A DNA stretch of 64,000 bases from Fistulifera solaris (GCA_030295235.1 AP026133.1:1-64000); one strand, 5' to 3'; positions 1 to 60,107 are shown, numbered from the stretch's first letter. The notes: generated from the letters alone by a model not told the origin. Numbers and translations are program-made.

Positions 1-277
1 TAACTAACTCCTAACCCAACTCCTAACCCTAACTCCTAACCCCAACCCTCAACCCCAACCCCAACCCTAACCCCAACCCTAACCCTAACCCTAACCCTAA
101 CCCTAACCCTAACCCTAACCCTAACCCTAACCCTAACCCTAACCCTAACCCTAACCCTAACCCTAACCCTAACCCCAACCCTAACCCCAACCCCAACCCT
201 AACCCTCAACCCTCAACCCTAACCCTAACCCTAACCCTAACCCTAACCCTAACCCTAACCCTAACCCTAACCCTAAC
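1..277 (+). repeat. Telomeric repeat array (CCCTAA)n, i.e. TTAGGG on the minus strand; chromosome end
   Basis: Tandem CCCTAA from the window start, with variants (CTCCTAA, CCCCAA, CCCTCAA) mostly in the distal part. Confidence 0.98.
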
Positions 278-585
278 GTCCAAAGCACCATTTCCTGGTG
301 AGGCACGAGGAGAACCCTGTCCATTGAAAAGCAATGCACCCAAGTTTGTCATGCATGCCCCCGACGTTGACAATTGCATCAAGCTTGTTTTGGATGCACT
401 GCAAGGAATCGCCTTCCATAATGACGCCTTCAGTTGTCCACCCCACTACAACAAAGCTCTATGATCATACCCAGCAATTCTACAAAGAGGACACCATTCA
501 CATTGGTACAACATTGATCAAAGTCTGTGAAATGGATCCAAATGCACCCACTCAGAACTGCAGTTGTCTTTGTTGCACAAAATAA
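278..585 (+). pseudogene. rusA: 5'-truncated RusA-family Holliday junction resolvase (copy 1), fused directly to the telomere
   Basis: Across frames it reads RPKHHF...APKFVMHAPDVDNCIKLVLDALQGIAFHND...TTTKLYD...NCSCLCCTK*. This carries the RusA signature D-x-D-N-x-x-K-x-x-x-D-A-L...D and is collinear with 4640-4946. Confidence 0.85.
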
Positions 586-681
586 TTTTGATAGTTTGAT
601 TTGCATTTCCAATGAAATCTTTCTTCTTTCCCTTATTTCCAACATTTCCTTCTATTCCATCTTCCTTACTCCCTTGTTACT

Positions 682-768
682 GATTCCTACTTCCTATTTA
701 CCTAGTTCTAAGTTCCTTTTTCCAAGTTCCAAGTTCCATATCCCAATTTCCAAATTCCTAACCCTAAC
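682..768 (+). repeat. Subtelomeric unit 3' tail (copy 1): TTCCTAC/TTCCAAG-type repeats ending in CCTAACCCTAAC
   Basis: Near-identical to 5573-5656 and related to 5261-5430. Confidence 0.9.
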
Positions 769-810
769 AAAGTTCCGGTAATGGATAAAACCCTTCGGCC
801 GGTATTGGCT

Positions 811-3230
811 TCAACAATAAAACCGCATAAACGAAAGTCTATTTGAATTTGATGAGCTTTCATCGACCGAAATAAGAGGATTCGCGACTGGCACACAACC
901 TTTTTTAATATCCTTCTTCGAAATGTTGACTGAAAAGGGCGGTCTTCCTGACATCGCCCCCTTAGCGCTGTTAATGCAAGAATAAAGTTCTGCACATCCG
1001 ACGCTGATAGGCTTGAACATACCGATGTATTTGCTGGGCTTAAGAAAGTCTTTCGGCAATGACAACCGCAACTGTGTGACTCGGGTGTCATGTAGCAGGT
1101 AGGGGCGCTAGTAGACCTTATTCACGCCCCCGCTCAACTGAAGCCCCGACTTCTATCAATGGTGCATCTTCGTAAAAGTGCTTCGGGTTATGCTTGCGCC
1201 GCTGGCACGGAAAGCAAGGCTTCGTCCATAAAACTAGTGCCTCAACGTCGCCACGATCGCCTTCACAATTAACTCTAACGCTTGACATCGCGTAGCCCCC
1301 AGGTCGCATTGAGTGAAACTCTACAAATTGCTGGTGACTTGTTCGTGAGTAAAGCACAACGCCTCCGCTTTGGGGGGTCCACAATGTGCCATCGCGACAT
1401 CCATTTTCGTTCCAATTCGCCCTTATTCGATAAAGTATCAGCTGGTTTGGAGAAAAGAGTCGGTTTACGCCGACTTGGATTGTTGGTGGAATACTGAATC
1501 CAATGTTGTCGCGGCAATTTTTCGCTTTCATCAGTAGCGTCGATAATATTGTAGTGGACGCAGGACACAAACGATCGCGGCATCGGCGACAACCGGTGCT
1601 GCCTGGAGTGTTGTACACCAAGCAGTTTCCGAGGATGATGTTGAAGTCGCTCAAGAGCGAATTAATGCTTCGGTAGTATCGGCAACGGCTTGCGCAAAAC
1701 GACAGAAGTAGACATCGGTACTGGGACAGCACACCTAATACGATGGGGCCTCAACTTCGTCAGATCCTCGTGAAATTGATCCGCCTTTTGGGTGCTCCGC
1801 CACCGCTCGACCAATGACTTAATTCGACTAAATCTTCTACGCCCTTTCAAGAACGCATCATGGAAGATTGACAAGTACTCAGCTGCAATTCCCAGGGAGA
1901 AAGCGACATCTCTATCCTCTTATTCGATTTTTGGCACGCATGTGACGCCCCGCCACAGAGGAAGCGTTGATTGGATCAGGGCGAAAATTGATATTTTCTG
2001 ATCGCTGACAGAGTTGGCATATCGTCCTTCTACAACGTTGAGCTCCAGCCGCCCGCTGAAAAAGTGCAGCAATCAATCTGAGCTCTTGAGAGGAAATTCC
2101 ATGTTCTGTAGATAGCGTCGCAATTTCGTTTTGCAAAATCTCTTGTATGGATCTCTGATTGCTCCGAAAAATTTTAGATAGCAATGGCATGTGTTGGTTC
2201 AAGCGAGTACTCATGCCTTTGAGCGTAGCAAATTGTTGAACAACCACTTGTATTTCCATCTGCTGTCACAAGTGAACCTTCTGACAGCGAATGATAAATT
2301 GCTGCATTTAATCTTGGAATGGGACCAAAAAGGCTTCGCGATCATCTGACGGGAACCAAACAACAGAAAAAGGAGGCGGCAGCTGCGTCAATTCTGGCAG
2401 GACAGAGGATAAAGGACGAAGCTTAAATCGCGAGATCTAACCAAAGTATTGTGGCTTAAATTGAGTCAAGCATTGTCTCTTTTCTTCCAAATGGTACTTC
2501 CATCACCTCCATCTGACATGGCGAGTGGGTCAGCCGGGTGGAAATTCGAAGTGTGTCTCCGTGAACTCTGCAAATTAGAGGATAAAGTGCGGAACCGGTT
2601 TTCGCCGAATCTAACCAGTGGTCGCCTCCACCAAGGAATTGCGGGTTCTGTTTCGGTTACAACTCTGTTCCACAGAGGAGTTCGAGCCTCATTAGTTTCA
2701 CCAAACTCGTCCGGATGTTTCGCAAGAAAAAGCCAGTGGCCCACGGGATAATAGAGAATGAGATCACCAACCTGTGGAACGTAGATATCTTTACGGTCAG
2801 GCCACGTCCTATCGATTGTCGCGGCGAAAAAAGGAGAAATCCACCCGCCGCCACGATGCTTTAAAGAGTCTGACCATCGTGAAATACCACACCCTTTTTA
2901 TATAGCTTTTTGTGAGTCCGCCTGGTGGTGCTTCCAGTATTATTGTCGGAAATGGTCGGGAGGGAGCAACGACGGAATTCATACACCGCTTCGACCTTCG
3001 CTGAGGTGTCCCAATGTCGACGAAACGTCCGTGAGAGTATTGCATCCAAGATAGAATACGCGTTCTAGTGTTCTTATGGTGAGAATGGCTGTGGATTTTC
3101 ATGCAAGCAAGATGTCTATCGATTACCTCTTACCTTGAGAATTATTGGATATATGTCGAGGGCACATAATTGTTGAATTTGAAGTCGCTTCTTCCGCTTT
3201 TCATCTTCAATATCTTCGCTCCGAAGCGCT
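811..3230 (-). pseudogene. Degraded, intron-containing protein-coding gene of unrecognised family
   Basis: Chain of minus-strand ORF fragments (2861-3049, 2466-2744, 1912-2259, 1662-1874, 1275-1592, 1118-1732, 811-1071) with stops and frameshifts. An apparent GTAAG...CTAG intron at ~3065-3133 joins ...YPIILK to NAYSILDAILSR. Confidence 0.4.
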
Positions 3231-3263
3231 TCCTACAGCATGAGGATTAGTTTATAAGCAAAA

Positions 3264-4164
3264 ATGGAACAGCATCGACCATCGCATAACCCTGAGACAC
3301 ATCTACAACGACTGGGAGGAGCCGGAGGCAGCAACTGATCTGCAAGGAAATCGGTTGCAGGCAGCAGCAGAAGATACACTTCAGGAGCTGGCGTCACTCG
3401 GAATGAATGTTGAATCGGGTTGTCGGTGGAGTCACCGAAGTCTATTCCCCTGTGGTGGTCCAGTGTTTGCTGGGGGCATTGTCTGATCTTCGTATGACCA
3501 CACTTTCAAATGGAGGCCACATTGCACCCCCGGGATGAGACACGAGATGGAATTCGGGCTTTGAACATGAACGTGAAGACCAACCTGGTATTCATCCCCA
3601 TGATGGCAACCAACAAAAAGATCAGTGCCTTTAACAACCTAAAATGAAGCCTGAATTTTGGGATGGGAAAACAGTCTACAACCTGGCGTGGTGGGAAGGG
3701 AATGTTACGTTGACTCGTATGAATGACGGATCAGGGAATTTCTTTTCCAGTCTTGAAATTGGTGCTTGGGTCCCCGATTATTTGATTCCCGAGTGAGTTG
3801 CAGGAGCACAAGCTGGCGATGAAGTGGCTGGCTCACCATGGACCTGTGTTTCCGGACAATGAGACTTACTATCTCAGCCTCAAAAAGGAGTATGTGACGG
3901 TCTTTCTCCCGGAACATGCAAAGTGAGCTTGTTGGTGGCGCGCCGGGCTGGATTCTTCCCTGTTTTCGCCCCCTCAAAAATGCAATCATTCAGAAATCAC
4001 CAAAGTTTGGCTTGAATGGGTACCAGCTGTCGACGATCAATCTCCAGCCCAAGTCCTACCTGGCCATGATTGGATTTGTGAAGGGAGCAGCACCCAACTT
4101 GCAGTTTATTACCTTGACCAACTCACAGAACAAGGTCATGGTCATTGCAAACCGCAACACTTGA
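3264..4164 (+). pseudogene. Disrupted ORF of unknown function upstream of and co-directional with rusA copy 2
   Basis: Protein-like fragments EFWDGKTVYNLAWWEGNVTL..., KLAMKWLAHHGPVFPDNETYYLSLKKEY, and ORF 3916-4164. No family recognised. Confidence 0.4.
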
Positions 4165-4276
4165 GTGATTCAAGCTATTTGTGCTTGTTGATTGTGTTTC
4201 TCGTGAATTAGGTTTTACTTAGGTCTCATTTCTTGTTACTCTTCTTCTGCATTTGCCTCACAGAGATTGCTAGAAA

Positions 4277-4946
4277 ATGTCTTTTGAACCTAGAAAAGCC
4301 GGTTGACTCACAAACCACAGTGGACTTCGACAATGCCAATCAGAAGGGGGGGAAAGCACCCGGTTGTTACAGCTATGTCTCTGGCCCCCAAATCAAGTAT
4401 GAATTCACCAACCACATACTCCCTTGCCTGCAAGATTTCTGGAAGACCAAGACCCCAGTATCGCAGCTATGCAACAACAACAAAAGCAAAGGGCAGAGTC
4501 AAGTTGTACAGTCCAAGTACAGGGAACCAGAAATCCTTTCGTGATGCATTCAGACAAGCATTGAATCATGCACCAAAGGGACTCTTCCCGATGCAATGGC
4601 AATCCATGCTCAATCACCGTGAAAGTTCTACTTTCCAAGACCCAAGACCCATTTCTTACTTGGACCAGCATCACAAGAATGGCTGTTGAAACCAACAGCT
4701 CCCAAATTTGTCACAAATGCTCCTGACAATGACAACTGCGTGAAACTGGTTTTGGATGCCTTGCAGGGGATTGCATACAAGAATGACTCATGCATTGTAA
4801 ACATTGCAACAACAAAGCTATATGACCACACACAGACAACTTATAGGGATGGTGTCAACTATGATGGCACAACTCTTATTAAGGTTGTGGAAATTGACCC
4901 AAACGTGAAGGATTGTGACTGCAAATGTTTTCATTGTGCCAAGTAG
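4277..4946 (+). pseudogene. rusA: Near full-length RusA-family Holliday junction resolvase (copy 2), with several frameshifts
   Basis: ISGRPRPQYRSY...KLYSPSTGNQKSF...(CSITVK/YFPRPKTHF)...APKFVTNAPDNDNCVKLVLDALQGIAYKNDSCIVNIATTKLYD...DCDCKCFHCAK*. The RusA motifs occur in the expected order. Confidence 0.88.
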
Positions 4947-5260
4947 ATAAGAGAGATAATAAAACAACAGTTTTACAATGTTTATATTGTGCCAAGTAGA
5001 TAAGAGAGGTACTAACACAACATTTTCACAAACAGTTTTCATTACCAAATCCGAGCAAAAATCACGGAAACAAGAGGGTCCAAATGTGCAAATATATTTT
5101 TACAGGAGCAAAACATTGATAGATACAACAGTTTTTGCAAGTGCTCATTGTTCCTCATTCCTCTAAATTCCCTATCCCCTCTTGCCTCCCTTTCCTTCTT
5201 ATTCTTCCCCTTATTCCCCCTTTTTCCTAGCTTCACTTCTTCCTCAATTCCTCCTGCTTT

Positions 5261-5430
5261 GATTCCTACTTCCATGTGCGTTACCACTACTCAAATTCCT
5301 ACTTTCTACTTCTAAGTTACCGTTTCTCTAATTCCTACTTCCTACTTCTACGTTTCCTTGTTCCAAGTTCCATGTTCCATATCCCAATTCCCAAATTCCT
5401 AACCCTTCCCAAACGTAACCCTAACCCTAG
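5261..5430 (+). repeat. Subtelomeric unit 3' tail (copy 2, internally expanded) plus interstitial telomeric repeats TAACCCTAACCCTAG
   Basis: GATTCCTACTTCC...TTCCAAGTTCCATGTTCCATATCCCAATTCCCAAATTCCTAACCCT, followed by TAACCCTAACCCTAGCCCT. Confidence 0.88.
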
Positions 5431-5572
5431 CCCTGCTTGCGCGCCACACAGAAGAGGGCTTGAATTTTTCGTGTGCATTATCGTATTAGTGGATTGTCAA
5501 TTTTTTTAGTCTAGGAAAGGCTGTACGGAAAAGTAAATAACAGCTAATAGGGCATATTCCCCGCATCTTCCA

Positions 5573-5656
5573 GATTCCTACTTCCACTTTACCTAGTTCT
5601 AAGTTCCTTTTCCAAGTTCCAAGTTCCATATCCCGATTTCCAAATTCCTAACCCTA
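5573..5656 (+). repeat. Subtelomeric unit 3' tail (copy 3) ending in CCTAACCCTA
   Basis: Differs from 682-766 at only a few positions. Confidence 0.9.
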
Positions 5657-6540
5657 GTCCTAGTGAAGGCATTTTGAGTACCGGTCGGCTAAGTATTTCA
5701 TTCTCGAGTCCTTCTTTTTACTTATAGTGAATGCTCTAACCCTTCGGAAAAGCAAAAACTTTTTGCCTCTCTATTTACCAAAACCGCTGCTAGTGAAGGG
5801 TTTTTGGGTACCGGTTGGGCAATAACTTGATTCACGAGTAGTATTTTCCAGAGGTACTGACTGCTCCTAAGGTCAGAACGTAAAGAACATGCAGAAGGCT
5901 AAGGACTTAGACGAAAAACTGACACCGGACACCGGGCATCCGGTCATTTCCCAAGGCCCATCTTCTTTACGATCTTAATAGCCTACCGGTACTGGCCTAG
6001 AGGTTACGGTACTTGTTGCTGGTACTCGTTACTCGTTACTTGTTTAGGCGCGAATTAAAAGTCGCACTCAAAAAAGTCCCCTCCTTACTTTTTGACTTGA
6101 GACCAGATAAAATACCTAAAAAACAGTGGAGTACTACTTTGTATCGACTGTCAAGGCTCCAGGCACGGGAACGCAACTGCTTGGTACATTTTTCTACGGG
6201 GGCCAAAGTTCCCGCTCCATCCGGTCTTTGGGCCTAAGGGCTTAGGGCCAAAACAACTTCAAGAATAGTCCATAACGCGCATCTTTTACTTTACGACTTA
6301 CTGTCATTATGGGGAGGAAAAAGCCGCGCATAGCGCTTTTTCCTTTGCCAAAAACACGCAAAACAACCCCGATCTTTGCCGCATTATTTAGTTGGTTGTT
6401 GTTGATCGATTCGTTGGTGAACAATATCTTTGAAACAATAAATAATAGTTTAAAGCCAACATTTGTAGAAACAAAACACAAACTTTACCTTCTAAAACGA
6501 GAAAAACAGCCGCAAACAGGCAACGCAACGACATTCTATC

Positions 6541-9500
6541 ATGTTTCGTTTGTCGGTAGGCGTCCTCTGGCTTTTCATTGCATCCTCGTGCATGCAAAAT
6601 GTCATCGGTCAAGGGCCGAACAAATTCTTGTTCCATGTTTCCGATTTGACGGAAGTCTTTGATGAGTTGACGACGATAACGGGTCCTCTTTCCTCGCAAG
6701 ATATACTCAACGCGGAGATTCCTTTCGTCGACAAGTCGATCAACGAAATGATCGGAGGAGATGCGGCCAAGACGATTGCGACACTACTCGACTTTTCCGA
6801 CTTTGTGCAGTTTACGATAGATGAAAATAACGGTGTTGATATCGAGTTGGATCGTGGTGAGATAGCAGCAGAGTTGACGAGCTACTTGCAAAGTTTGGAT
6901 CTTACCTCAGATCTCCTCGCTGGTGAGGGCTGCACGAAAAACATTGATGCTACTTACGTAGAAGGAGGCGAAGAGACGGTGCAATTAACATTCTGTGTAC
7001 TCTTCAACCTGACTAGAAGTACGACATTGAGTGGCGATGGATTGTTTGACAGTATCCCTGAGATCTTTGAGATTGATTTGGATGTTTCATTGGACTTTGC
7101 AGCCACGCTTCTCTTCAAGGCACAGCTCGATATTGCTTTCATTCCAAATGGGGCTACCGCGAACATTACTGTTGATCCTGTCATTGCTGCAATCACCGCT
7201 AACGGAGATGTCGACGTAACTGTGGGAGTAGGTGTGCTAGAGCTTCTATCCACAGCAACCGCGATTGTCGACGCTACTTTCGAGTTGGCGAATTGTGACA
7301 ATGCTACGGAAACTTGCGATAATATTGGCACTCGACTTGGTGACTCGGATTTTTATCTAGAACGCGCCGCGAGCTATTCGATTGCCGGTAACATGACCCT
7401 TGGTTCGACATTCCCTGGTCTCACGCTTGGAGGCGATGCTTCCTTTTCGGTTGTAGAAGAAGACATCTTCAACCCTGCCCCCAATGTCACATTCGAGAGC
7501 TTTAACTTCGAGGATTTTATCAGTTTCAGCCCCGAGAATTCTGTGGCGATGCTTCGTTTGATCGACAGTGCTATCGTTCGTGCCCAAGAAAATGAGGCTT
7601 TCAATACCAATATACCGTTAACCGATACGAGTGTCGCGGAAATCCTGTCGACGGGGTCACTGGTCACTACCAGTTTGCTCCGATTGTTTCAGAAAGTCGA
7701 GCCGTACGAAGATCGACCCACCAAGTCCCTCTTCTTGAAGCAATCCGAGTCCTTCCCCACGAGTACAACGGACACTACGGACGGAAAGACGTACGAAATT
7801 TACGTGCTTGTCGGAGACAGTACGACTGGCACAGAACTCAACGTCAATCCAGATAACCAAGCGGCGCTCTATGATTTAGTGGAAAGCGAAGGAGTGATTT
7901 GCAGTATTGAGTTCGATGAAAACTTTTCCGATTCGACGACGTTCAAGGATGGTCTCTTGACGGTTTTGCAAGCCGCTAATTGTCCAGGACTTACAGTTTG
8001 TGAAGCAGAAACCGACTGCGATTTCGATGAAGAATCAGGAGATTTTTTCAGGCTGCACCGATGGTGCTGATGATTGCCTTCTCGCTGTTGGGATTGATGA
8101 AGACGATCTTGTCTTCATTGTCTCCAATGCCGACAGCGACGTTCATTTGATCGGCTTCATGGAACCACTGGCCACGACGCAAGGCGAAGGAACCATATAC
8201 AAGTTCCCCGTCAATACACCAGCTTTTCCGGCCCTGATTCCGAGATTCCGAAGTTGGCAAAACTTTACAGACTTTCTATCTGACGCCATCGCAAGTAGCA
8301 CGGATATTGTGGACGTCAGCGTAGATTTCAGCTACACTGAAGCAATAGCTCCTGATCCAGCGCAATACGAGCTGGTGATAGGTTTTTCGAAATCTGCTTC
8401 GTTTTCGGTTGGTTTAAATGCTTCTGAAGGTATCGGAGATTTGATTGACATAACGGTTAGCGAGGGGTCTTCGCTTGATCTAACCGTTAGCGCCGCTTTC
8501 GAAACTACCTTTGGTGTGCTGATGGAAGCTGATGACGACCAAAGCTTGACTGTGCTAGCGGAATCATGCGGAGGAGACGGTTTTGCTTGTGTCGCGGATT
8601 CGCTCGACATTGTTCTTTTTTACGTAGAAAACGTCGACGGAGTATCAGAAGACCAATGGATCAATACAACTGTCGCCAGCAGTACGAATAAAAATATCAC
8701 ACAGGAACTTGAAGATGCGATTGGAGAGGTGGCAACCGTCACGGAACAAGGGAGTTCTCTTCTCGTGATCCGATTCAATCCGAACATAACTGATGTGAAA
8801 TTGCTGTTGCTAAAGGTACGTTTCGAGGGGCACGGCATCATACTCTGTTTGCCACTTGCCACTAACAACTGTCTTTTTCTTTCTTGGTGGTTTCAGAACT
8901 GCAATAGTACTGACATCACGACCGAAATGAAACAGAGCAGTGTGCTTGAGTGTCAAGAAGATGAATTGGTTTCTCCTATTGCGAATGATTACGGGTTAGA
9001 AGATTTTAGCTTGTCCAAGCGGAAGTGGCAGATTGTTATTGGAGACGCCTCCATTTCAGCTAACGTGACTGTGAGTCTCAACGTTCAACTTTCTACCAAT
9101 GTTGGCGGCGTTATCGAGGTGACTGCTGAATTGGAGGGCGACATTACGGGGTACTTGGAACTGTCTCTAGGAACTGGAGAACTTCTCCCTTTCAGTGACT
9201 GGCTAGTCGCATTGATTAATATTTTCGATTCAGAAAGTGAGGGTTATATTGCTGATTTTTTCGAAGCGTCCGCAACCTTTGATGCGACTTTTGAAGCTAG
9301 TGTTGAGCCTAGTTCACCGTTCAATTTACTGGCAACCGCCAGCGCAAGTGGAGGTTTCGCGGAACCTTTTGTGATTGATTTCCTTGCTAAAAACTTTTCC
9401 TACCCTGAAATCGAGTTTGACGTCAATATTGAAGGCATTGGGGACGTTCGGAAACTAACCTTCAGACAAGTGGTTGCCATTCTGGCGGATGTGCTTGAGT

Positions 9501-12500
9501 TTTTGGTTGGAAGCAATGAAGACGATGGCGTCGATTCTTGCTCGGGTGGCCTTCTTGGACAAGATGCTTTCACTTATCAGCTACCAGGTACGTCTTACAA
9601 ATGGTTAAGTTTGCGTAATGTTTTGCTTGATCTGTACGCTCACGTTTTTTATCCACTTGACATCACCTTTCATCTCCAATCTTCTATATAGTGATTGGAA
9701 TCAGTGTGTGCAGCACTGCATCGTTTCTCCAAGTTCTTGTCAATGCTGTCGAAGAGCTTCTTGATGAGACGACCACCTCCGGCAGCAAAACGACGACGAC
9801 ATTTTCGTCTTTGGAAGTGAAATTAGAAACGCTCTTGCAAGATGGTGTAGGTGGTACTCCTTCTGTTAATATCACGACGACTTCTGATTCCATTCGTTCG
9901 GAGCTTTCTGTCGAATTGACGCTTGCTTGGACCTTTACTCTAACCGAAACCTTTGTCTTGGACATGTCCAACTACTTTTCGGAAGAGGACCTAGAAAACA
10001 ACGCCGGTCTCGATTTCTTTGCAAATGCATTGCTTCCAGGTACTGGGGAGGGACAGTTTGGGCTTGAAGCAGGGCTGGTCTTCACAATGGGGGTTGGCTT
10101 GGAATACGTGAGCGCGACTAATGACGTCAATCCTTTCGTGAAAGGGACTACGGGATTTAAACTCCAGTTGGCTGCGGCGGGCTCTCTTGATTATGAATGT
10201 TCAGTAGGCGCGTTTCAAGGGGGTGTGGAAGCCGAGTTTAGCTTTGGTGATGGGGACGGTGGCCCAATGGAACTTTCGGTGGGACTCGATGAATCTCTGA
10301 ACTACTATCTTTCAGACCCTGGTGCCGATTCGTCTAACAGAGAAGGTTTCAAAATTGTGTCTGGAATCAGTGGCCTTGTTTCGGAAGTGGAAGCAGTATT
10401 TGCAGGACAAGCAACTGCTAACTTGACGGCTGGATTGAGTTTACTCGGGTTGTCGATCGATGTCGACGCGGCAATAAGTGACTTGCAAGCATTCTTTCTT
10501 GGAAACACTTCCGTTTTGAGCGTTGAGTTTACGCCGTCATTTCCATCCTTTGAGGTTCCCAGTTTGTTGGACATCCTTTTGGCGGAGCCGCAAGGCATTA
10601 TCGATGCTCTGGACGATGTTTTCAAGACTGCCGAAGAGGCGTCTGTCGGAGAGAATGGTATCATCACGCGATTTCCCGTCCCATTCATTCGCAATGGATT
10701 GGGAGATGCTCTCGGAGCGGGAACCTCGAACAACATTTTAGCCAAGGGACGTAATAAAGTGATTCCGTTCCTACAAGAGGGTCTGGACTCTTTTGAAGGA
10801 AAAACAGATACCGTTGGAGATGTTTTGGCTCGATTGATGGATAAAGCACTGGATGCAGTTGAGCCCAGTCTCCGTCTCGAAGGCCGATCCACAGAATTCA
10901 TTTGCTACATTTACAGCAACGACACTTTGCAGCAAGAAGCAGTGGATTGTGTGGACGAAACTAATGATCCTACTTCAGTGATGTGGAGCCTCCCATTCGG
11001 GCAGTCTTTTAGTATTGATCTTCCGCTGGATTTCGATCTGGACGCGGGAAGTTTCCCACTTGAAATCACCTTTGATGGCGGAGACTCGTCTTTGAAGATA
11101 GGATGGGGCCTTGACCTGGCATTCGGTTACATGGAAGGCCCGGGTTTCTTTCTCTTTACGTTCCCCGACGATGGGCCAGAAATAACCATTGAGGCTGGTC
11201 TATCAATTGTTGGCTTTACCCTTGATGCGACGCTGCTATTTTTGAAAGGCTCTCTCAGTAACGGTAACTTAGTGGTTGCTGTCGGATTGTCGGTCGATAT
11301 GGATAAAGGCAATGCGCTGCGATTAAAGTCGGGAGAAAACGCTACGGATCCGCAATACGGCCGCCTTACTCGAGATTCCTTTCGTAAAATCACGAAAATC
11401 AGTGATTTATTCGTCCCAGGTGCGACAGCGGGTGCGACCGTTGAAATTCCAGACGTCCGGTTTCAAGTCAGTGTTGAACTACTAGGAGGGAGCTCGTTAG
11501 CGCAGGAAGTGGTGGCTTACATACCGCAACTTACTGCTGAGATATATGCTCAAGCGCGAAAGGTTCTTTCAACGGATGATTCTCCTGCCAGGAGATTAAA
11601 GTTTGAAGCTGCGCGCAGGAGTCTGGGCGTACATCCTGCTCTTGCCGGGCACGACGCTGCTCCTCTTTCTCGCTCCTTATCATTTTCGGACGAATTCGCT
11701 CTCCTGGCTGACGATTTTGTGTTTGAGGAATGCCCCATCGAAGCGGATTCAACGTTTTGTGCCCGTGTAAGTCAACTGAATTTGGACATGTCGAAAATCC
11801 GAGATCTCGTGGAACCTGTCTTGGTCGAAATAACCAACAAAGATGAGACTGGTTTCCTTGATAAAATGGTCCGGCCGCTGATTATTTTAGAAGAAAGATT
11901 GCCTGGAATCTCCGACATCATGAACAAAAAGATCACCGTTCTCGACATAGCTGAGGTACGTTGGAAATTATTTTTGCTGTTGCTCCATGGCCTCACCGAG
12001 AATGTGCTGCGTGCTGACATTTCCCTCTGCGTATCTAGGCCATGATTGGTCCCAAATCAGGTGCTCCCACGGTTCGTAGAATCATCCAGACGTATCGACA
12101 GATCAATGACTTAATCGGAAGCTTTTTGGAAGATGGCGGTTTGCTCCTGGCCGAGGAATGCGATGTGCTTGACAGTTTCACTTGCACGGGTGGTGTCTTT
12201 AACAACGCGAGACGAGGGTTAACGATACGTGTTTCGAGTAGTATGAGTCAATTGTTTGATTTGGAAGATGCCTCTTTGCTGCCCACGACTCCATCGCATG
12301 TGATTGAGCTGGAAAGAGGTTTACAATCAGGCACATGTACCATCAATACGTCTGACTGCAGCGGAAGTTGCTCCGGATGCACAGGGACTACAAAAATCAA
12401 GTGTCAAAAAGATTACCTCGTTTGTAAAGCAAAAAGCGTGAAAGGGCTTACATTTCCTTTCATGAGCGATTTAACCAGTGTTGTTGGTTTGCTGTCCGGT

Positions 12501-15500: not shown

Positions 15501-18500
15501 CGCGCTGTAAGTTCCTGCTGATTCGAAGAACTGAACTGGATGATGACCATCGTTTCTAACCCACCTTTTTCTTTTGCAGGTATCTTTATGGTGCTGAGGG
15601 CTCAGACACCTTTGTAATAACACCACAGAAGGTTGATCCAGTTGTATCGAAAAACCTTCGAGGCCATAGGGGCATCCTTCGACACACTGTCACTAGTGCT
15701 GATCTTGGTTACGACGGATTAGCTGTGGAGGGCGTTGCTGTTGATGTTCTAGATAATGACGGTGATTCAGGGGCGTATTTCAACGTTATCGAAACCGAAG
15801 TGGTTCACGTTATGGATGAAGATGGACTTGGCACCTTTTCCTTTTGGCTGTACCCCACTGTCACCCCAGATCCATGGGTCACGGTGCAAGTTGCATCCCA
15901 AACAGATGTAAACGGAAATGCGTGGCTGCTGCTAAACGGGGATGATCTAACTGCCGTTGAGCTCGTCTTCAATGAGACGGCGGAGCCCCAAGAAGTAATA
16001 GCCTCCTTCAATCCCGCTGCAGCTCGACTAGAAATTACGGACTACAACTTACTCATCAAGCTTGATCTTGTTCCGTTAGAGTCGCCAGATCTGAGATTTG
16101 AAACGACGGCACAAACTATCCGCCCAGTATCCGTCAAGCTTTTGCCAGCGAAAAATAGCCCACTTGCGAAGTCTGTCACTGTTGTCCAGCCGGATGGAGA
16201 CATTAACGTTGGAGAAGGAGACCAAGGGTGGTCTAGTTCGTACGATGTCTATCTGAGACCATGCACTAATGCCATGATTCAAAACACTATAGTAGAAATC
16301 GTTCCCACGGAGACAGGAAGAGTGACCGTCAACCCCGAAGTCATCGATTCTGCACATTGGGGGAGCCAAGCAGGCGGCTGTAAAGTAACCGTTCAAGTCA
16401 CTCCTGCTGTAGATTCTGATGAAGAAGGCATTCACTTTGTGACGCTAACACACAAAGTCGTTGACTCGAATCAGGAAGACATTCGTCTCTCCGATGACAG
16501 CATATTGTATGCAGAGAGTGTGTTGGTTCGAATTTACGACGATTTAGTTCCGAATGTCGTCATTAAGGAGAGTTTGAGTGTTACAAGCACTGCGGAACTT
16601 GACCAGGACGTGATCAATCTTTGCCGGACGAATCATTTTACGTTGACTCGTACACGATCCGGCTTGCAAGTGAGCCTGAGGAAGATGTTATTGTTACAGT
16701 CGAATCAATTGCAAAGGCAAGTGATTATGACTTGTCTAAGAACACTGAAGAAAGAGTGCAGGTTTTGGTTGGCGCTGAAGGCAGTGAGGCTGAAAGTTTA
16801 CAACTTACCTTTACGAAGACGACATGGTTTATAGAGCAAACGGTCCGTGTTGTAGCCAACAATGACAACGTACAAGAAGGTGTTGACTTGCTCCACTTTC
16901 CGGATCAGCCGTCTTTCTTGGCCTACATCCAAGGACCTATTTTCATAGAGGGTGATACCTCGCCTGACGTTCCAGACATTCGCGATGCTGTACTATTTCC
17001 CGGCGAAAATGACACCAGCTTGTTCGCGTTCTTAGAAACACCTCCATCAGAGTTAGTTTATCCTGAAATGCAAGTGGACACACTTAAAATCTTCAACATT
17101 GACGTGCAAGGATCAAGTCCGTCTATTGGTACGTTGACCGATTCCCAATTCGTCGGATACAATATGGCGAAAGAAATCATTATTGGTGGCGAGAGTAAGA
17201 ATGATGGCATCTCTTACAGCGGGATGGAGGTCATAGAGTTTTACTTTGGTAGCGGTGTTGATAGTATCACTGTCGAGAGTACATCTGTTGCTGTCCACTT
17301 TGTTGACCTGGGTGATGGCAACGATTCTGTGAAAATACAAAACATATCAGGGCACTTTATCATTCATGGCAGTGACGGATCAGATACAGTAACAGTTGCG
17401 TCGGTGGAATCAACAGTGGACGCCATCAAGGGCCTTCTTGCGTTTGACGGAGGCAACGATGATGCTGCAATTGATCATCTTATTATCGACAATTCAGGCG
17501 ACATCACCAGTGACGACATTCTGAACGTCACGCGAAACACAGTCGAAATTGAAAGTATGTCCAATACGGAGGATGAGGAATCACGCATTCCACGAGATGT
17601 ATTTATTTTTAGCCTCAGAGGTTCAACAAGCGGCTACTTCAATCTTGCAGTCAACGACCCCATAACAAACATGACAACAGACACTGATATTCCATACCCG
17701 ACCAATAGTGAGCTTATTGAAGAAGCACTCCAAGATTTAATCTTTCCAGCGGCCAAGGGTGATGTATGCGGCAAGAACCAAACGTCACGTTGTGCGGAAA
17801 CGGTCAAGGTGTATGCGGTCGGAGATGAAGCCTTTGCCGTTTTCTTTTTGGGGGAGCGATTAAACGACGGTTTGACCCTAACTCTAACAACATCGGGCCT
17901 AGCCGACTTCACGCCCGAGATCTTTGTAAACGCCTCGAACGACATCCTTCTCCGCAGTACTGATGTTGCGTACGCAGATGTGGAAGTACTTGATATCACA
18001 ATGGGAAATCCACAAAGTTCAGACTTCAAGATTGTCGTGAATGTCAGAGGAACGACCGCTATCACCACGATCACAACCCAAGATGGTGATGACGCTTTCT
18101 TTGTATCGTCTGAGGCAAACGAAAACGTCATGACTTCCAGCACCGTAGATTTCTTGCATGGATGGCTTGATTACATTGAAAACGATCTCTTCCTCAATGC
18201 TGCGTCAGGGCGCCACCGACTGTTGATCTCCGACGAGAGCAGTTATTTTGGTAAAGGACCTGCGATACTCTCCAGCACCTCGTTTACAGCCATTCATGAA
18301 GATGTTGGTGACATCTTTTCACTGCAGATGGCGGAAATTGGATAAGTGGCGTCAACTTGTGGCTGAGCCCTAACAATGATGAGGTTAGCGTAGTGTCTAT
18401 CGCATCGGATCCAACATCTCCCTCTTTTCAGACAACTACATCGGTTCACTGTGGAGATGGAAACGACAAACTCACGATATCGATTGATGAGGTCAATACA

Positions 18501-56283: not shown

Positions 56284-57155
56284 TCGTTTTTTTTGTTGCC
56301 TTGCACAGGTAGATCGATCGATCGATTGCATTACCAGTATTATTATTTGTGAAAACCTTTCCTCTCGAAAACAAAGCACCCTTGCCTTGCACCTTGTACC
56401 GTACAGGGACTCTCTCTACTCTCTCTAGAGAGAGAGACGTGACGGTTTCTTGTTATGGCGTACATTTCAACGGCAACCTACAAAATGGGTGATGTGACAT
56501 GTGACGCACACAGCAGAAGCACGCGTTGTTGTGCGCAACGGAAAGACACGAAAAACGAAAAGAACAAAATAAAAAGGTGTTCCGTCACTCGCAGTAAAAT
56601 TCAACATCTACTTGTATTGGTAACTCGTACTTTGCCATGGACATCTATTCATGTCCTTTTATTTTGTTGCAGCGCCGCGGTTTCCGACTTGTCGAGAAAA
56701 GAAGACGCAGTTCGCTGATACGTTTTGTCAGGGATGCTATAATTGCATCTTAAAAGTGTCGTCGAGACTCTTTGACACGATGTAGTCCATCAACGCTGTC
56801 AAAAACTAGAGTGCTAGAGTGCGTATCCGTCTTGCTCATTCAAAAAAACATCGTGGGTCAACCAATGAACTCTTGGATTGGGGTATCGATCAAACATCCA
56901 TCGGGATCGGGAGGAACCGAATCGAATCCGTGACCCAAATTGCTCGTGACTTCTAAAGTGCTTGGCGAATTGTTCGAATTAAATTTTCGACTGTCTTCGT
57001 CACGACGCGGAACCGTCGTCGGACTATAGTGGTCACAGTAACAATGGCGCGACTTGCAAGAAGGCAGGATCGCGCCACTAGAAAGAGCCAAAACCCAAAA
57101 CGTTTTCATTTTCTTTTGATATTCTTCTCTCGTTGCCGTTCATTCATTTCAAAAG

Positions 57156-58042
57156 ATGGGAGACTATCCATCCCCTTTACTTTATTTCCGCGTAGCAATC
57201 AACTTCTGCCGTGTCGCGATCGTTCTTCGATCGATCCCTGTCCCAATGGAACTCGACCGATCAACAACAAAATCGACCTCCAAACTGCCATCAACGAATA
57301 TACCATTACACCGTCTGAGCCGAAACCAAATTGCTGGGATGTCTCAGCTGTGACAGATTTCTCTGCCCTTTTCAAATCGACTTCTTTCAATGAACCCATC
57401 GGCAACTGGGATACATCGGCCGTCACTACTATGGAGTTGATGTTTGAGGATGCTTCTGCATTCAATCAATTCATCGGAGGATGGGATACTTCCGCGGTCA
57501 CTGACATGCAGTACATGTTTTATGGTGCAACAGCATTCAACAAGAAGATTGGGGATTGGGATACTTCAGCTGTTACCCTCATGGAGGCCATGTTTTACGA
57601 CGCGGCATCCTTTAATCAACCGATCGGTGCCTGGAATACGGCCCAAGTCACCAGTATGTTGGGTATGTTTGAGAATGCCCAGGCTTTTAACCAGAAAATT
57701 GGAAGTTGGAATACTGTCAAGGTCACTAACTTGTCGTACATGTTTCAAGGAGCTACGTCCTTTAATCAAAATATTGCAAATTGGGACACATCGTCGGTCA
57801 ACGACATGACGAACATGTTCTTTGATGCAAAAGCCTTCAATCAACCACTCGGGGCATGGAATGTGGCCTTGGTCACCAGTATGAATCAAATGTTTCATGA
57901 AGCAGCTTCGTTCAATCAGAATATGTGTGCCTGGAAGACTGTTACTGCAGGTGCCACCAAGAACCTCATGTTCACTGAAACGAGTTGCCCTCAGGCAGAT
58001 GAACCGTCGGGTAACTTTTTCTGCCAAGAATGCGTGGTCTAA
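57156..58042 (+). CDS. DUF285/BspA-type repeat surface protein (start uncertain)
   Basis: About 8 tandem 25-aa repeats FNQxIGxW(D/N)TSAVTxMxxMF between Cys-containing caps (DPCPNG...NCWDVS; NMCAW...TSCP...FCQEC). Confidence 0.92.
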
Positions 58043-59214: not shown

Positions 59215-60107
59215 ATGGAAGACTATCAGCCTCCCTTTTCTCTCTTTCCGCGTGACAATCAGTTGGTTCCTTGTCGTCGCGGTCCACCGCCAATCCTTGT
59301 GCGGCTGGAACTCGAGTGATCGCCAGCAGGATCGAATTGGAAGCGGCAATTGCTGCTCATCTGCTTGCACCTTCGGATCCGCCACCGCTCTGCTGGGATG
59401 TCTCAGCTGTGAGAGATTTCTCCGGCCTGTTCAAATCGACTTCTTTCAATGAACCCATCGGCAACTGGGATACATCGGCCGTCACTACTATGGAGTTGAT
59501 GTTTGAGGATGCTTCTGCATTCAATCAATTCATCGGAGGATGGGATACTTCCGCGGTCACTGACATGCAGTATATGTTTTATGGTGCTACAGCGTTCAAT
59601 CAAAAGATTGGGGATTGGGATACTTCAGCTGTTACCCTCATGGAGGGCATGTTTTACGACGCGACATCCTTTAATCAACCGATCGGTGCCTGGAATACGG
59701 CCCACGTCACCAGTATGTTGGGTATGTTTGAGAATGCCCAGGCTTTCAACCAGAAAATTGGAAGTTGGAATACTTCCAAAGTCTTTGACATGTCGTACAT
59801 GTTTCAGGGAGCTGCGTCCTTTAATCAGAACATTGCGAATTGGGAAACATCGTGGGTCCATGACATGACGAACATGTTCTTTGATGCAAAAGCCTTCAAT
59901 CAACCACTCGGGGCATGGAAAATAGGCCAGGTCACCAGCATGAATCAAATGTTTCGTGGAGCGGCTAAGTTCAACCAGAACATGTGTAATTGGAAGGAAA
60001 CTGTGGAGTCGTTGGGAATTGATAGAACAGATATGTTTACGGGTACAAAATGTGTTCAGGCAAGTACACCATCGGGAATATTGTTCTGTCGAATTTGCCC
60101 ATTTTGA
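59215..60107 (+). CDS. DUF285/BspA-type repeat surface protein, tandem paralog (start uncertain)
   Basis: Same architecture; core nearly identical in DNA to the 57 kb copy. Confidence 0.92.

Follow-up and report, generated by a model that had tools for sequence, protein, structure and literature searches.

A telomere-associated family of two-gene units with a RusA-like nuclease at a chromosome end of Fistulifera solaris

Telomere-associated elements, among them HeT-A/TART of flies, Athena of rotifers and Y′ of yeast, are the main natural experiments in how chromosome ends are maintained without, or alongside, telomerase. Endonuclease-deficient Penelope-like elements use reverse-complement telomeric repeats to attach to G-overhangs (PMC8557442), and no telomeric element is more abundant than HeT-A, although it has no pol (PMC5537684). 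The yeast Y′ elements, which contain a pair of large open reading frames (ORFs), one of them for a helicase, lie directly internal to the telomere as tandem arrays of 0-4 copies; in telomerase-null survivors recombination amplifies them, with formation of extrachromosomal circles, and RNA-mediated mobilization has also been reported (PMC11042809). Here we analyze the first 64,000 nucleotides (nt) of a Fistulifera solaris chromosome sequence (GCA_030295235.1, AP026133.1:1-64000; hereafter the window). In our reading, this chromosome end carries a multicopy, telomere-associated family of two-gene elements, apparently undescribed, whose telomere-like 3′ terminus is the point from which copying onto chromosome ends proceeds. 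The gene content is new for such elements: a resolvase of bacterial or phage type, expanded and apparently nuclear, and an orphan protein, here called ORF1.

Positions 1-277 are C-strand (CCCTAA)n repeats on the + strand, with variant repeats distally, as expected for a left chromosome end; 33 of 36 matches to CCCTAACCCTAA (allowing one mismatch) fall in 21-276, the shuffle expectation being 0.03. The telomere is abutted at 277/278 by unit 1, a 5′-truncated RusA-like ORF on the + strand (278-585, stop codon at 583-585) whose frame begins in mid-protein, at about residue 113-120 of relatives of 214-222 amino acids (aa). Tail 1 follows (586-768, +): 183 nt, C/T-rich (28% C, 6% G), with the end ...CCCAATTTCCAAATTCCTAACCCTAAC and terminating ...GTTCCATATCCCAATTTCCAAATTCCTAACCCTAAC at position 768. 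A preliminary description of this DNA had recognized both the telomere and a 5′-truncated rusA plus tail at 278-768, and both stand. Unit 2, also on the + strand, comprises a 5′-truncated ORF1 (3257-4164, stop codon at 4162-4164), whose conserved C-terminal domain occupies 3410-4164, and a RusA-like ORF2 (4277-4946, probable ATG at 4277, stop codon at 4944-4946). It ends in tail 2 (4947-5411, +; 465 nt), which closes with ...CCCAATTCCCAAATTCCTAACCCT plus TCCCA. The 5′ limit of unit 2 lies between about 2900 and 3410; the value 3257 is taken from the start of a short-read contig (run X1, see below). A 53 base-pair (bp) tandem duplication (4924-5029, 87% identical) runs from the final RusA codons across the stop codon into the beginning of tail 2. 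Next comes a short interstitial telomeric tract (5412-5430, +; AACG TAACCCTAACCCTAG), in which TAACCCTAACCCTAG sits at 5415-5430 behind 9 odd bases after tail 2, and which separates unit 2 from a 140-bp segment (5431-5570) unlike any other unit in the region. The array closes with tail 3 (5571-5656, +), an orphan tail end of 86 bp ending ...CCCGATTTCCAAATTCCTAACCCTAG, beyond which the DNA is unrelated subtelomeric sequence. The short unit originally placed at 5431-5656 is thus reduced to its tail.

All three tails share the ending ...CCAAATTCCTAACCCT and lie on the + strand. A 33-nt tail end, GTTCCATATCCCAATTTCCAAATTCCTAACCCT, is found at 733-765, 5374-5406 and 5623-5655 with 0, 1 and 1 mismatches, respectively, always in + orientation; none of 100 shuffles gave even one match. 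The preliminary description had every unit pointing away from the telomere and ending in CCTAACCCTA. The orientation proved correct, and the ending is exact in tails 1 and 3; tail 2 has CCTAACCCTT instead. Its more general claim, of a fixed polarity with a sharp C-strand telomeric 3′ end and variable 5′ truncation, is borne out in the units seen: the genes run inward from the terminus, 5′ edges differ, and the sharp 3′ edge gives way, after 0-7 telomeric repeats, to unrelated DNA. The two RusA copies of the window are only about 70% identical at the DNA level and therefore belong to different subfamilies. Beyond the units described, no RusA or ORF1 similarity was found elsewhere in the 64 kilobases (kb).

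The interval between the two units has a different origin. On the minus strand, from 2744 down to 767, it aligns to residues 1-653 of a bromodomain/PHD protein of 1351 aa (P0250); a second relative, P0251, aligns in a similar way. The segment (767-2900, with a proximal limit uncertain between 2900 and 3256) is, by these alignments, an internal part, truncated on either side, of a large host chromatin gene. The identification comes from the P0250 alignment; pieces of it compared with Protein Data Bank (PDB) sequences gave weak bromodomain matches (E of 0.028 and above). The long unit once proposed at 769-5430 is therefore not a single unit, although its rusA, tail 2 and telomeric tract (4277-5430) remain; the part from 767 to about 2900 is the host gene fragment. 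The last host codons (EGFYPLPELC, 796-767) reach into the final AC of tail 1, an overlap of 2 nt, so that unit 1 is joined through this overlap to the middle of a broken host-gene copy. Contigs of run X1 reach a depth of 28-63 over 786-3365, compared with about 19 on unique DNA, which hints, within the limits of contig depth discussed below, that the host fragment is duplicated and that a second copy lies elsewhere.

Relatives of the units were sought in environmental sequence. A protein search with the 86-aa frame against 1.84 billion representative proteins gave 213 matches at E≤0.001, the best of them 208-248 aa long with the RusA domain at the C-terminal end, and a metagenome scan provided 13 close loci (L001-L013). 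The arrangement of ORF1, RusA, tail and telomeric repeats recurs in independent metagenome contigs, with ORF1 upstream of RusA in five of the loci (L001, L003, L004, L006 and L007) as well as in the window. The most complete unit, that of L001, measures about 3 kb. It consists of a 5′ leader, at least 475 nt long, in which CTTCTCCAAAA motifs recur and which runs off the contig end; ORF1 (476-1807, 443 aa); a spacer of 101 nt; RusA (1909-2619, 236 aa); and a 313-nt tail ending TTCCTAACCCT. Throughout the family, tails are 180-470 nt long, C/T-rich, and terminate in 1.5 C-strand telomeric repeats. The last 150 nt contain 30-35% C and 4-11% G in nine of nine tails, the same strand bias as the telomere, and all nine have one orientation with respect to the repeats.

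The terminus is the best conserved part of the tail. The terminal motif or a variant of it occurs 300-450 nt downstream of the RusA stop codon, on the sense strand, in all seven loci with at least 250 nt of sequence after the stop (L001, L002, L005, L007, L010, L011 and L012), L011 and L012 being 99.9% identical and the count therefore six of six in independent cases. The exact 23-mer of the terminus is present in 4 of the 13 close loci versus none of 67 bacterial or phage RusA loci, and the motif gave no match in the prokaryotic genome_contigs or in viral_contigs. The metagenome contigs share this end, its last 25-30 nt almost unchanged, while their RusA proteins are only about 45-50% identical. 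In the L005/L007 pair, whose RusA genes differ by a synonymous divergence (dS) of 0.16, the tails align poorly midway, yet the last ~30 nt are common apart from one base; the same ~30 nt are also common to clades with saturated dS. What follows the terminus varies. After CCTAACCCT, the number of telomeric repeats ranges from 0 (L001, L005 and tail 3) to about 6 (L002), and unlike DNA comes next; L010 has the variant end only, with no repeats. Locus L013 starts with the motif and CCCTAACCCTAG, the next RusA gene lying about 800 nt further, and in L007 the DNA after the tail matches DNA (L008 617-687), which may be unit leader or host DNA, that precedes a 5′-shortened unit in L008. The family of RusA-plus-tail units proposed in the preliminary description is in this way supported, by the same terminus in unrelated metagenome contigs and by the multiple copies seen in the X1 contigs.

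Some metagenome contigs show further peculiarities. Upstream of the RusA unit of L008, which has no ORF1, there are degenerate repeats rich in G, GGTAGGTAGGGTAG...GTGGGTAAAAA, as well as a long tract rich in CAACCAACC (60-115 and 240-700). Contig L002 begins with GG(T)16 (positions 1-20), possibly a cDNA-derived end. L002 and L004 are homologous from a (CA)n/(CAT)n microsatellite onward, ~100 nt ahead of the RusA ATG (L002 550-595); the L002 unit is therefore one without ORF1. For the entries P0160 and P0171 alike, the longest contig recorded has 6610 bp, so that the two may share one contig.

Read literally, the window copies are interrupted by frameshifts. Reading through the unit 1 RusA gene takes frame changes near 300-320 and near 427, the unit 2 RusA gene at least four between 4277 and 4690, and the ORF1 of unit 2 several; the host-gene fragment, too, is readable only with changes of frame. 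Short-read contigs of run X1 bear on this point. They match the unique DNA at 5822-8000 with no mismatches and no gaps, and therefore come from the same organism. Over 4253-4620 an X1 contig shows no substitutions and five one-base gaps; over 3257-4282, two substitutions and 12 gaps. A single base present in the window at 427 and at 4621, two of the frameshift sites, is missing from X1. One-nucleotide indels relative to X1 are thus many in the repeated subtelomere, mostly unaccompanied by substitutions, and absent from unique DNA, and so resemble unpolished long-read errors. This suggests that the apparent frameshifts are such errors; on the strength of this pattern the window copies are not called pseudogenes, and they are probably not decayed.

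The same contigs speak to copy number and flanks. Summed X1 contig depth is 214-741 over 270-785, 149 over 5172-5429, about 70 over 4656-5171, 31-46 over 4140-4655 and 19.5 over the ORF1 interval 3366-4139, the value on unique DNA being about 19. Six X1 contigs run past position 768 into mutually disagreeing sequences. Two others join the tail end directly to position 4253 and, with one extra C, to position 4594, the sides of these joints being only 26 nt long. Taken together, the data are suggestive of many copies at different insertion sites, with an abundance gradient from 3′ to 5′ and differing 5′ truncations. X1 contigs cover every segment (30 of 30 bins); parts of the units without listed X1 pieces and the unbridged junctions 277/278 and 768/769 count as evidence neither way. 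A wetland metagenome run (X2) contains ~90% identical relatives of both the host gene and the RusA-tail unit; two further runs (X3 and X4) hardly match the units at all and are uninformative on expression.

The ORF2 product is a member of the RusA family with distinctive additions. The Pfam RusA model (PF05866; cut-off 22.8 bits) matches the last 86 codons of the unit 2 gene (4686-4946) at 43.4 bits (E = 6.3e-11), and the proteins of L001 and L007 at 56.9 and 65.3 bits (E = 4e-15 and 1.1e-17, respectively). Family members of about 210-250 aa have a lysine-rich, basic N-terminal extension, which may act as a nuclear targeting signal, followed by the RusA core and a C-terminal C.C..C (CxCxxC) motif. 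Three core motifs, G.PRPQ.R, FPRPK.H and PD.DN..K...D, are nearly invariant, and PDxDN..K...D is kept in both window copies. In 23 sequences, conservation reaches at least 90% at D163, D165, N166, K169, D173 and D183 (P0003 numbering); the conserved acidic residues are presumably the counterparts of D70, D72 and D91 of E. coli RusA. A profile search returned ~30 clusters of this long form (150-284 aa, 185-285 bits), whose sources are exclusively metagenome, ENA or Logan assemblies, with NCBI and UniRef contributing none; ordinary bacterial or phage RusA proteins (~140-160 aa) scored at most 111 bits in the same search. In a tree of 95 rows one branch separates 39 long forms from 56 short ones, with a value of 85 in the Shimodaira-Hasegawa-like approximate likelihood-ratio test (SH-aLRT). 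The viral_contigs collection gave only short phage-type RusA, covering at most about query residues 46-234 (best E, 4e-17). Two large candidate proteins that seemed to be RusA arrays, P0008 (950 aa, 10 stretches) and P0032 (1280 aa, 9 stretches), turned out to be unrelated low-complexity repeats.

Structure prediction agrees with the family assignment. The AlphaFold2 model of the long form has a predicted local distance difference test score (pLDDT) of 90.5, and the first seven Foldseek matches are all chains of E. coli RusA (E from 8.5e-5 to 1.9e-3, probability 1.00, target template-modeling score 0.64-0.72), later matches having E>0.02. A profile comparison with PDB sequences had given titin as its sole match, which is spurious; the fold search did recover RusA. 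The long form is predicted to be a homodimer, with a score of 0.76 versus 0.01 for the best of three controls, contact agreement between runs of at least 56% and partner pLDDT of at least 69. The mark used is reached by 21 of 30 solved one-chain pairs and by none of 23 single chains (among eukaryotic proteins, 17 of 29 and none of 30); since RusA dimers have already been solved, the pass may reflect memory. Where pairs are unsaturated, L005-L007 and L002-L004 for example, the ratio of nonsynonymous to synonymous substitution rates is 0.07-0.24; L009-L010 is the one outlier, at 0.58. Judged by these ratios the nuclease is under purifying selection, and by sequence and model together it looks functional.

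ORF1 has 12 relatives, all unnamed and all from metagenome or run assemblies, with none from NCBI or UniRef and none in viral_contigs. That the long-form RusA and ORF1 are both seen only in such assemblies fits with subtelomeres being missing from annotated genomes. The protein combines an N-terminal H..CxCxxC motif (H..NP.C.C..C) with a conserved C-terminal domain of 250 aa. None of the 13 members belongs to a Pfam family, two single weak matches aside. The conserved domain has no invariant Asp and one invariant Glu; ORF1 is therefore unlikely to be a polymerase or a metal-dependent nuclease. Modeling is of low confidence (AlphaFold2 mean pLDDT 44.7): the best VIA-align Z is 3.1 among 48,161 chains, and the best Atlas value, 0.89, is to unrelated bacterial clusters; none of this shows a new fold. 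Both element proteins carry a cysteine motif, N-terminal in ORF1 and the C-terminal C.C..C in RusA, and they may share a small zinc-type motif.

With these parts in hand the family can be set beside the systems introduced above. Athena, Coprina and Terminons likewise sit at chromosome ends with reverse-complement telomeric repeats at the 3′ end, telomere-capped truncated 5′ ends and a fixed polarity (PMC8557442, PMC5537684). However, these elements encode a telomerase-related reverse transcriptase (RT) and carry hammerhead motifs; here neither was found, and a RusA-type nuclease is present instead. Pfam RT families are absent from 25 stop-to-stop ORFs at 711-4686, from 24 window ORFs of at least 180 aa and from the ORF1 proteins of L001 and L007. 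A search at E≤1 found no hammerhead or other Rfam family in window positions 1-8000, and only two sub-threshold, unrelated chance matches, neither a hammerhead, in L001-L013. By the features compared the units are therefore not Penelope-like elements, and the membership in Athena/Coprina/Terminon originally suggested is not supported: the longest copies, in which a Penelope-type RT and hammerheads might have been expected upstream, have neither by these searches. Nor does the idea fare better that the copies are non-autonomous because they are truncated. L001, the most complete unit, carries ORF1 and RusA and shows no RT over ~1.9 kb upstream of RusA, so truncation does not explain the missing RT.

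HeT-A (with TART/TAHRE) resembles the present units in being RT-less and in forming head-to-tail terminal arrays of a single direction with the 3′ end toward the centromere (PMC5537684), and in its long 3′ UTR (untranslated region) and telomere-like, G-rich strand bias (PMC5537684, PMC10088271). HeT-A, however, has poly(A) and a Gag gene and replaces telomerase repeats, whereas here there is a CCCTAA cap, no poly(A) and an ORF1 that matches no Gag family. With no poly(A), Gag or Pol, and with tails that end in CCTAACCCT without an A-run, the family is therefore not a non-LTR (long terminal repeat) telomeric retrotransposon of the HeT-A/TART or SART/TRAS kind. Yeast Y′ is similar as a matter of layout analogy only: tandem copies of the same direction inside the telomere, with two large ORFs, one of them for a DNA-processing enzyme. 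Y′ is linked to recombinational telomere maintenance (PMC11042809). It differs in encoding a helicase and in its full length of 5.2 or 6.7 kb, compared with ~3 kb units that are truncated to varying extents on the 5′ side and end in a conserved telomeric 3′ terminus; no helicase family or Y′ homology was detected in the scanned window, in L001 and L007, or in the ORF1-family proteins. Finally, the nuclease agrees with bacterial and phage RusA (PF05866; PDB 1q8r, 2h8c) in fold, Pfam match, PDxDN..K...D motif and predicted homodimer. It is about twice as long, with its basic N-terminal extension, insertions and C-terminal CxCxxC, and adjoins telomeric repeats, whereas the bacterial and phage proteins are found in prophages; the long form may likewise cleave Holliday junctions. 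A literature search, subscription journals not covered, turned up no RusA gene at telomeres or in telomere-associated elements, in keeping with the preliminary statement that this combination had no prior description. By analogy, then, the family would be a telomere-associated repeated element with unusual gene content and a layout like that of Penelope-like, non-LTR telomeric and Y′ elements.

The single orientation, exact 3′ edge, variable 5′ edges, short junctions, tail bias and conserved branched-DNA nuclease together point to copying onto a G-strand 3′ end. We put the probability that some telomere-directed copying process acts on the family at roughly three in four. In such a process the terminal C-strand repeats of the element would be the pairing partner for a G-strand 3′ end, which could be a telomeric overhang or else a broken end sharing 0-3 nt of microhomology. 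This end would be extended along the element from tail to head; early stops or later erosion would leave 5′ truncations, and telomerase would recap the extended end. RusA would be the structure-specific endonuclease of the element, cutting t-loop/D-loop junctions to expose or shorten ends, or, alternatively, resolving junctions formed in second-strand synthesis. As to the template, an RNA copy is a tentative choice that we hold at somewhat less than even odds. Sense transcripts would end at ...CCUAACCCU(AAC). Entry would then always take place at the exact terminus because the RNA physically ends there, and a few bases of pairing would suffice. Athena/Coprina and the RT-less HeT-A offer precedents (PMC8557442, PMC5537684). 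Since the element has no RT, this route requires one in trans, as in the case of HeT-A, from telomerase or a Penelope-like element; none was seen in the scanned ORFs.

A more specific form of RNA-templated copying, which we regard as unlikely, makes the element an RT-less telomere parasite or symbiont that borrows telomerase. The transcript end, CUAACCCU(AAC), would be a mimic of the telomerase template placed behind a conserved motif of 15-20 nt. The G-overhang would align on it as on telomerase RNA, and the host telomerase reverse transcriptase (TERT), or another RT, would run on into the element because, in this proposal, no template boundary stops it. The RusA-type nuclease would open t-loops and D-loops, making short accessible ends for landing. 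If true, this would be a third, previously unseen way of adding to chromosome ends, in which a resolvase serves as the 'endonuclease' of a terminal retroelement, and the first nuclear role for RusA in a eukaryote.

Several observations weigh against copying from the terminus as we read it. The host-gene fragment between the two units is internal and antisense, and G-overhang-primed copying of that gene's mRNA could not produce it; DNA-level rearrangement must therefore also shape the array. The searches described above gave neither RT nor hammerhead, the tails lack poly(A), and a junction-resolvase gene in place of an RT fits a life cycle of DNA recombination more naturally. The terminal location is seen at this one chromosome end, and the order of units comes from a long-read assembly whose repeats the short-read contigs do not bridge. 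Contig depth in the runs is not a copy number, and the metagenome contigs could stem from DNA or from cDNA.

Some of these points favor a DNA-templated element like Y′, spread between chromosome ends by recombination, an explanation that is possible though we lean away from it. The invading strand would be a short or broken end and its target the interstitial telomeric repeats beside a tail that lies on a different chromosome or an excised circle; copying would then run outward by break-induced replication, rolling circle or template switching; the RusA dimer would resolve the Holliday or D-loop junctions, and terminal erosion before the next event would give rise to 5′ truncations. This gives the conserved, predictedly dimeric RusA-fold nuclease an obvious job in an element where no RT was found. 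The antisense host fragment, with its 2-nt junction overlap, resembles the outcome of DNA template switching or end joining, and its raised X1 depth, with the caveat just stated, hints at duplication. The recombinational amplification of Y′ and its circles (PMC11042809) offer a precedent. The junctions are harder to accommodate. In L001, L005 and tail 3 only the 9 nt of the element itself, CCTAACCCT, lie beside non-telomeric DNA, and tail 1 adds 3 nt; such 9-12 nt of telomeric sequence are too little homology for ordinary strand invasion. Besides, the tail end is no physical end in a DNA donor, which makes an exact starting point hard to explain, and simple rolling-circle or break-induced replication predicts full-length internal units, whereas the internal units observed are truncated.

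Compared with copying from the terminus, it is improbable that ORF1 and the RusA-like gene are host genes of an ordinary subtelomeric family, reshuffled by generic duplication and decay, in which the telomere-like tail end is the relic of one ancient junction. Duplicated gene families are common in subtelomeres, the purifying selection on RusA is like that on a host gene, and direct inspection covers one chromosome end. A relic, however, does not account for a 3′ edge that is exact to the nucleotide in three window copies and in independent contigs with different DNA beyond each, nor for 25-30 terminal nucleotides conserved while the rest of the tail diverges past good alignment even between close relatives. 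The telomeric repeats that follow vary from 0 to about 6, which points to separate events, and the orientation to the repeats is the same in all nine tails. That the long-read assembler made a chimera by collapsing or mis-joining repeats is very hard to credit: the many 1-nt indels relative to short-read contigs do mark an unpolished region, and short contigs do not bridge the unit junctions, but X1 contigs cover all segments (the 30 bins), the same succession of tail, telomere and next unit occurs in the independent contigs L007 and L013, and tail-to-RusA joints are present in X1 itself.

Copying from the telomere-like terminus thus remains our reading. It raises two testable questions: whether the template is RNA or DNA, and whether a resolvase acts on t-loops and D-loops at natural telomeres. 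The terminus of 25-30 nt, with 1.5 telomeric repeats at its end, has hardly changed over a time in which protein identity fell to about 45%.

Just inside tail 3, a motif of ~45 nt (CTAGTGAAGG..TTTTG.GTACCGGT.GG) occurs twice, at ~5657 and ~5790, and in one X1 contig that reaches position 5661 the sequence upstream of it is a different one. The first genes inside the subtelomere are marked by overlapping long frames of 524, 576 and 794 aa on the + strand (6496-12045), which have no Pfam family and may together be one gene. An isolated 12-mer, CCCTAACTCTAA, at 17876-17887 differs from telomeric sequence by one mismatch and is probably a chance occurrence. In the remaining window the genes are ordinary eukaryotic ones, among them those for PhyH, CREG, pyruvate carboxylase and DUF285 repeat proteins. 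Two of the DUF285 (BspA-like repeat) genes, at 56957-58042 and 59256-60107, have in common a 300-nt repeat of 93% identity and contain periodic repeats of 75/150 nt.

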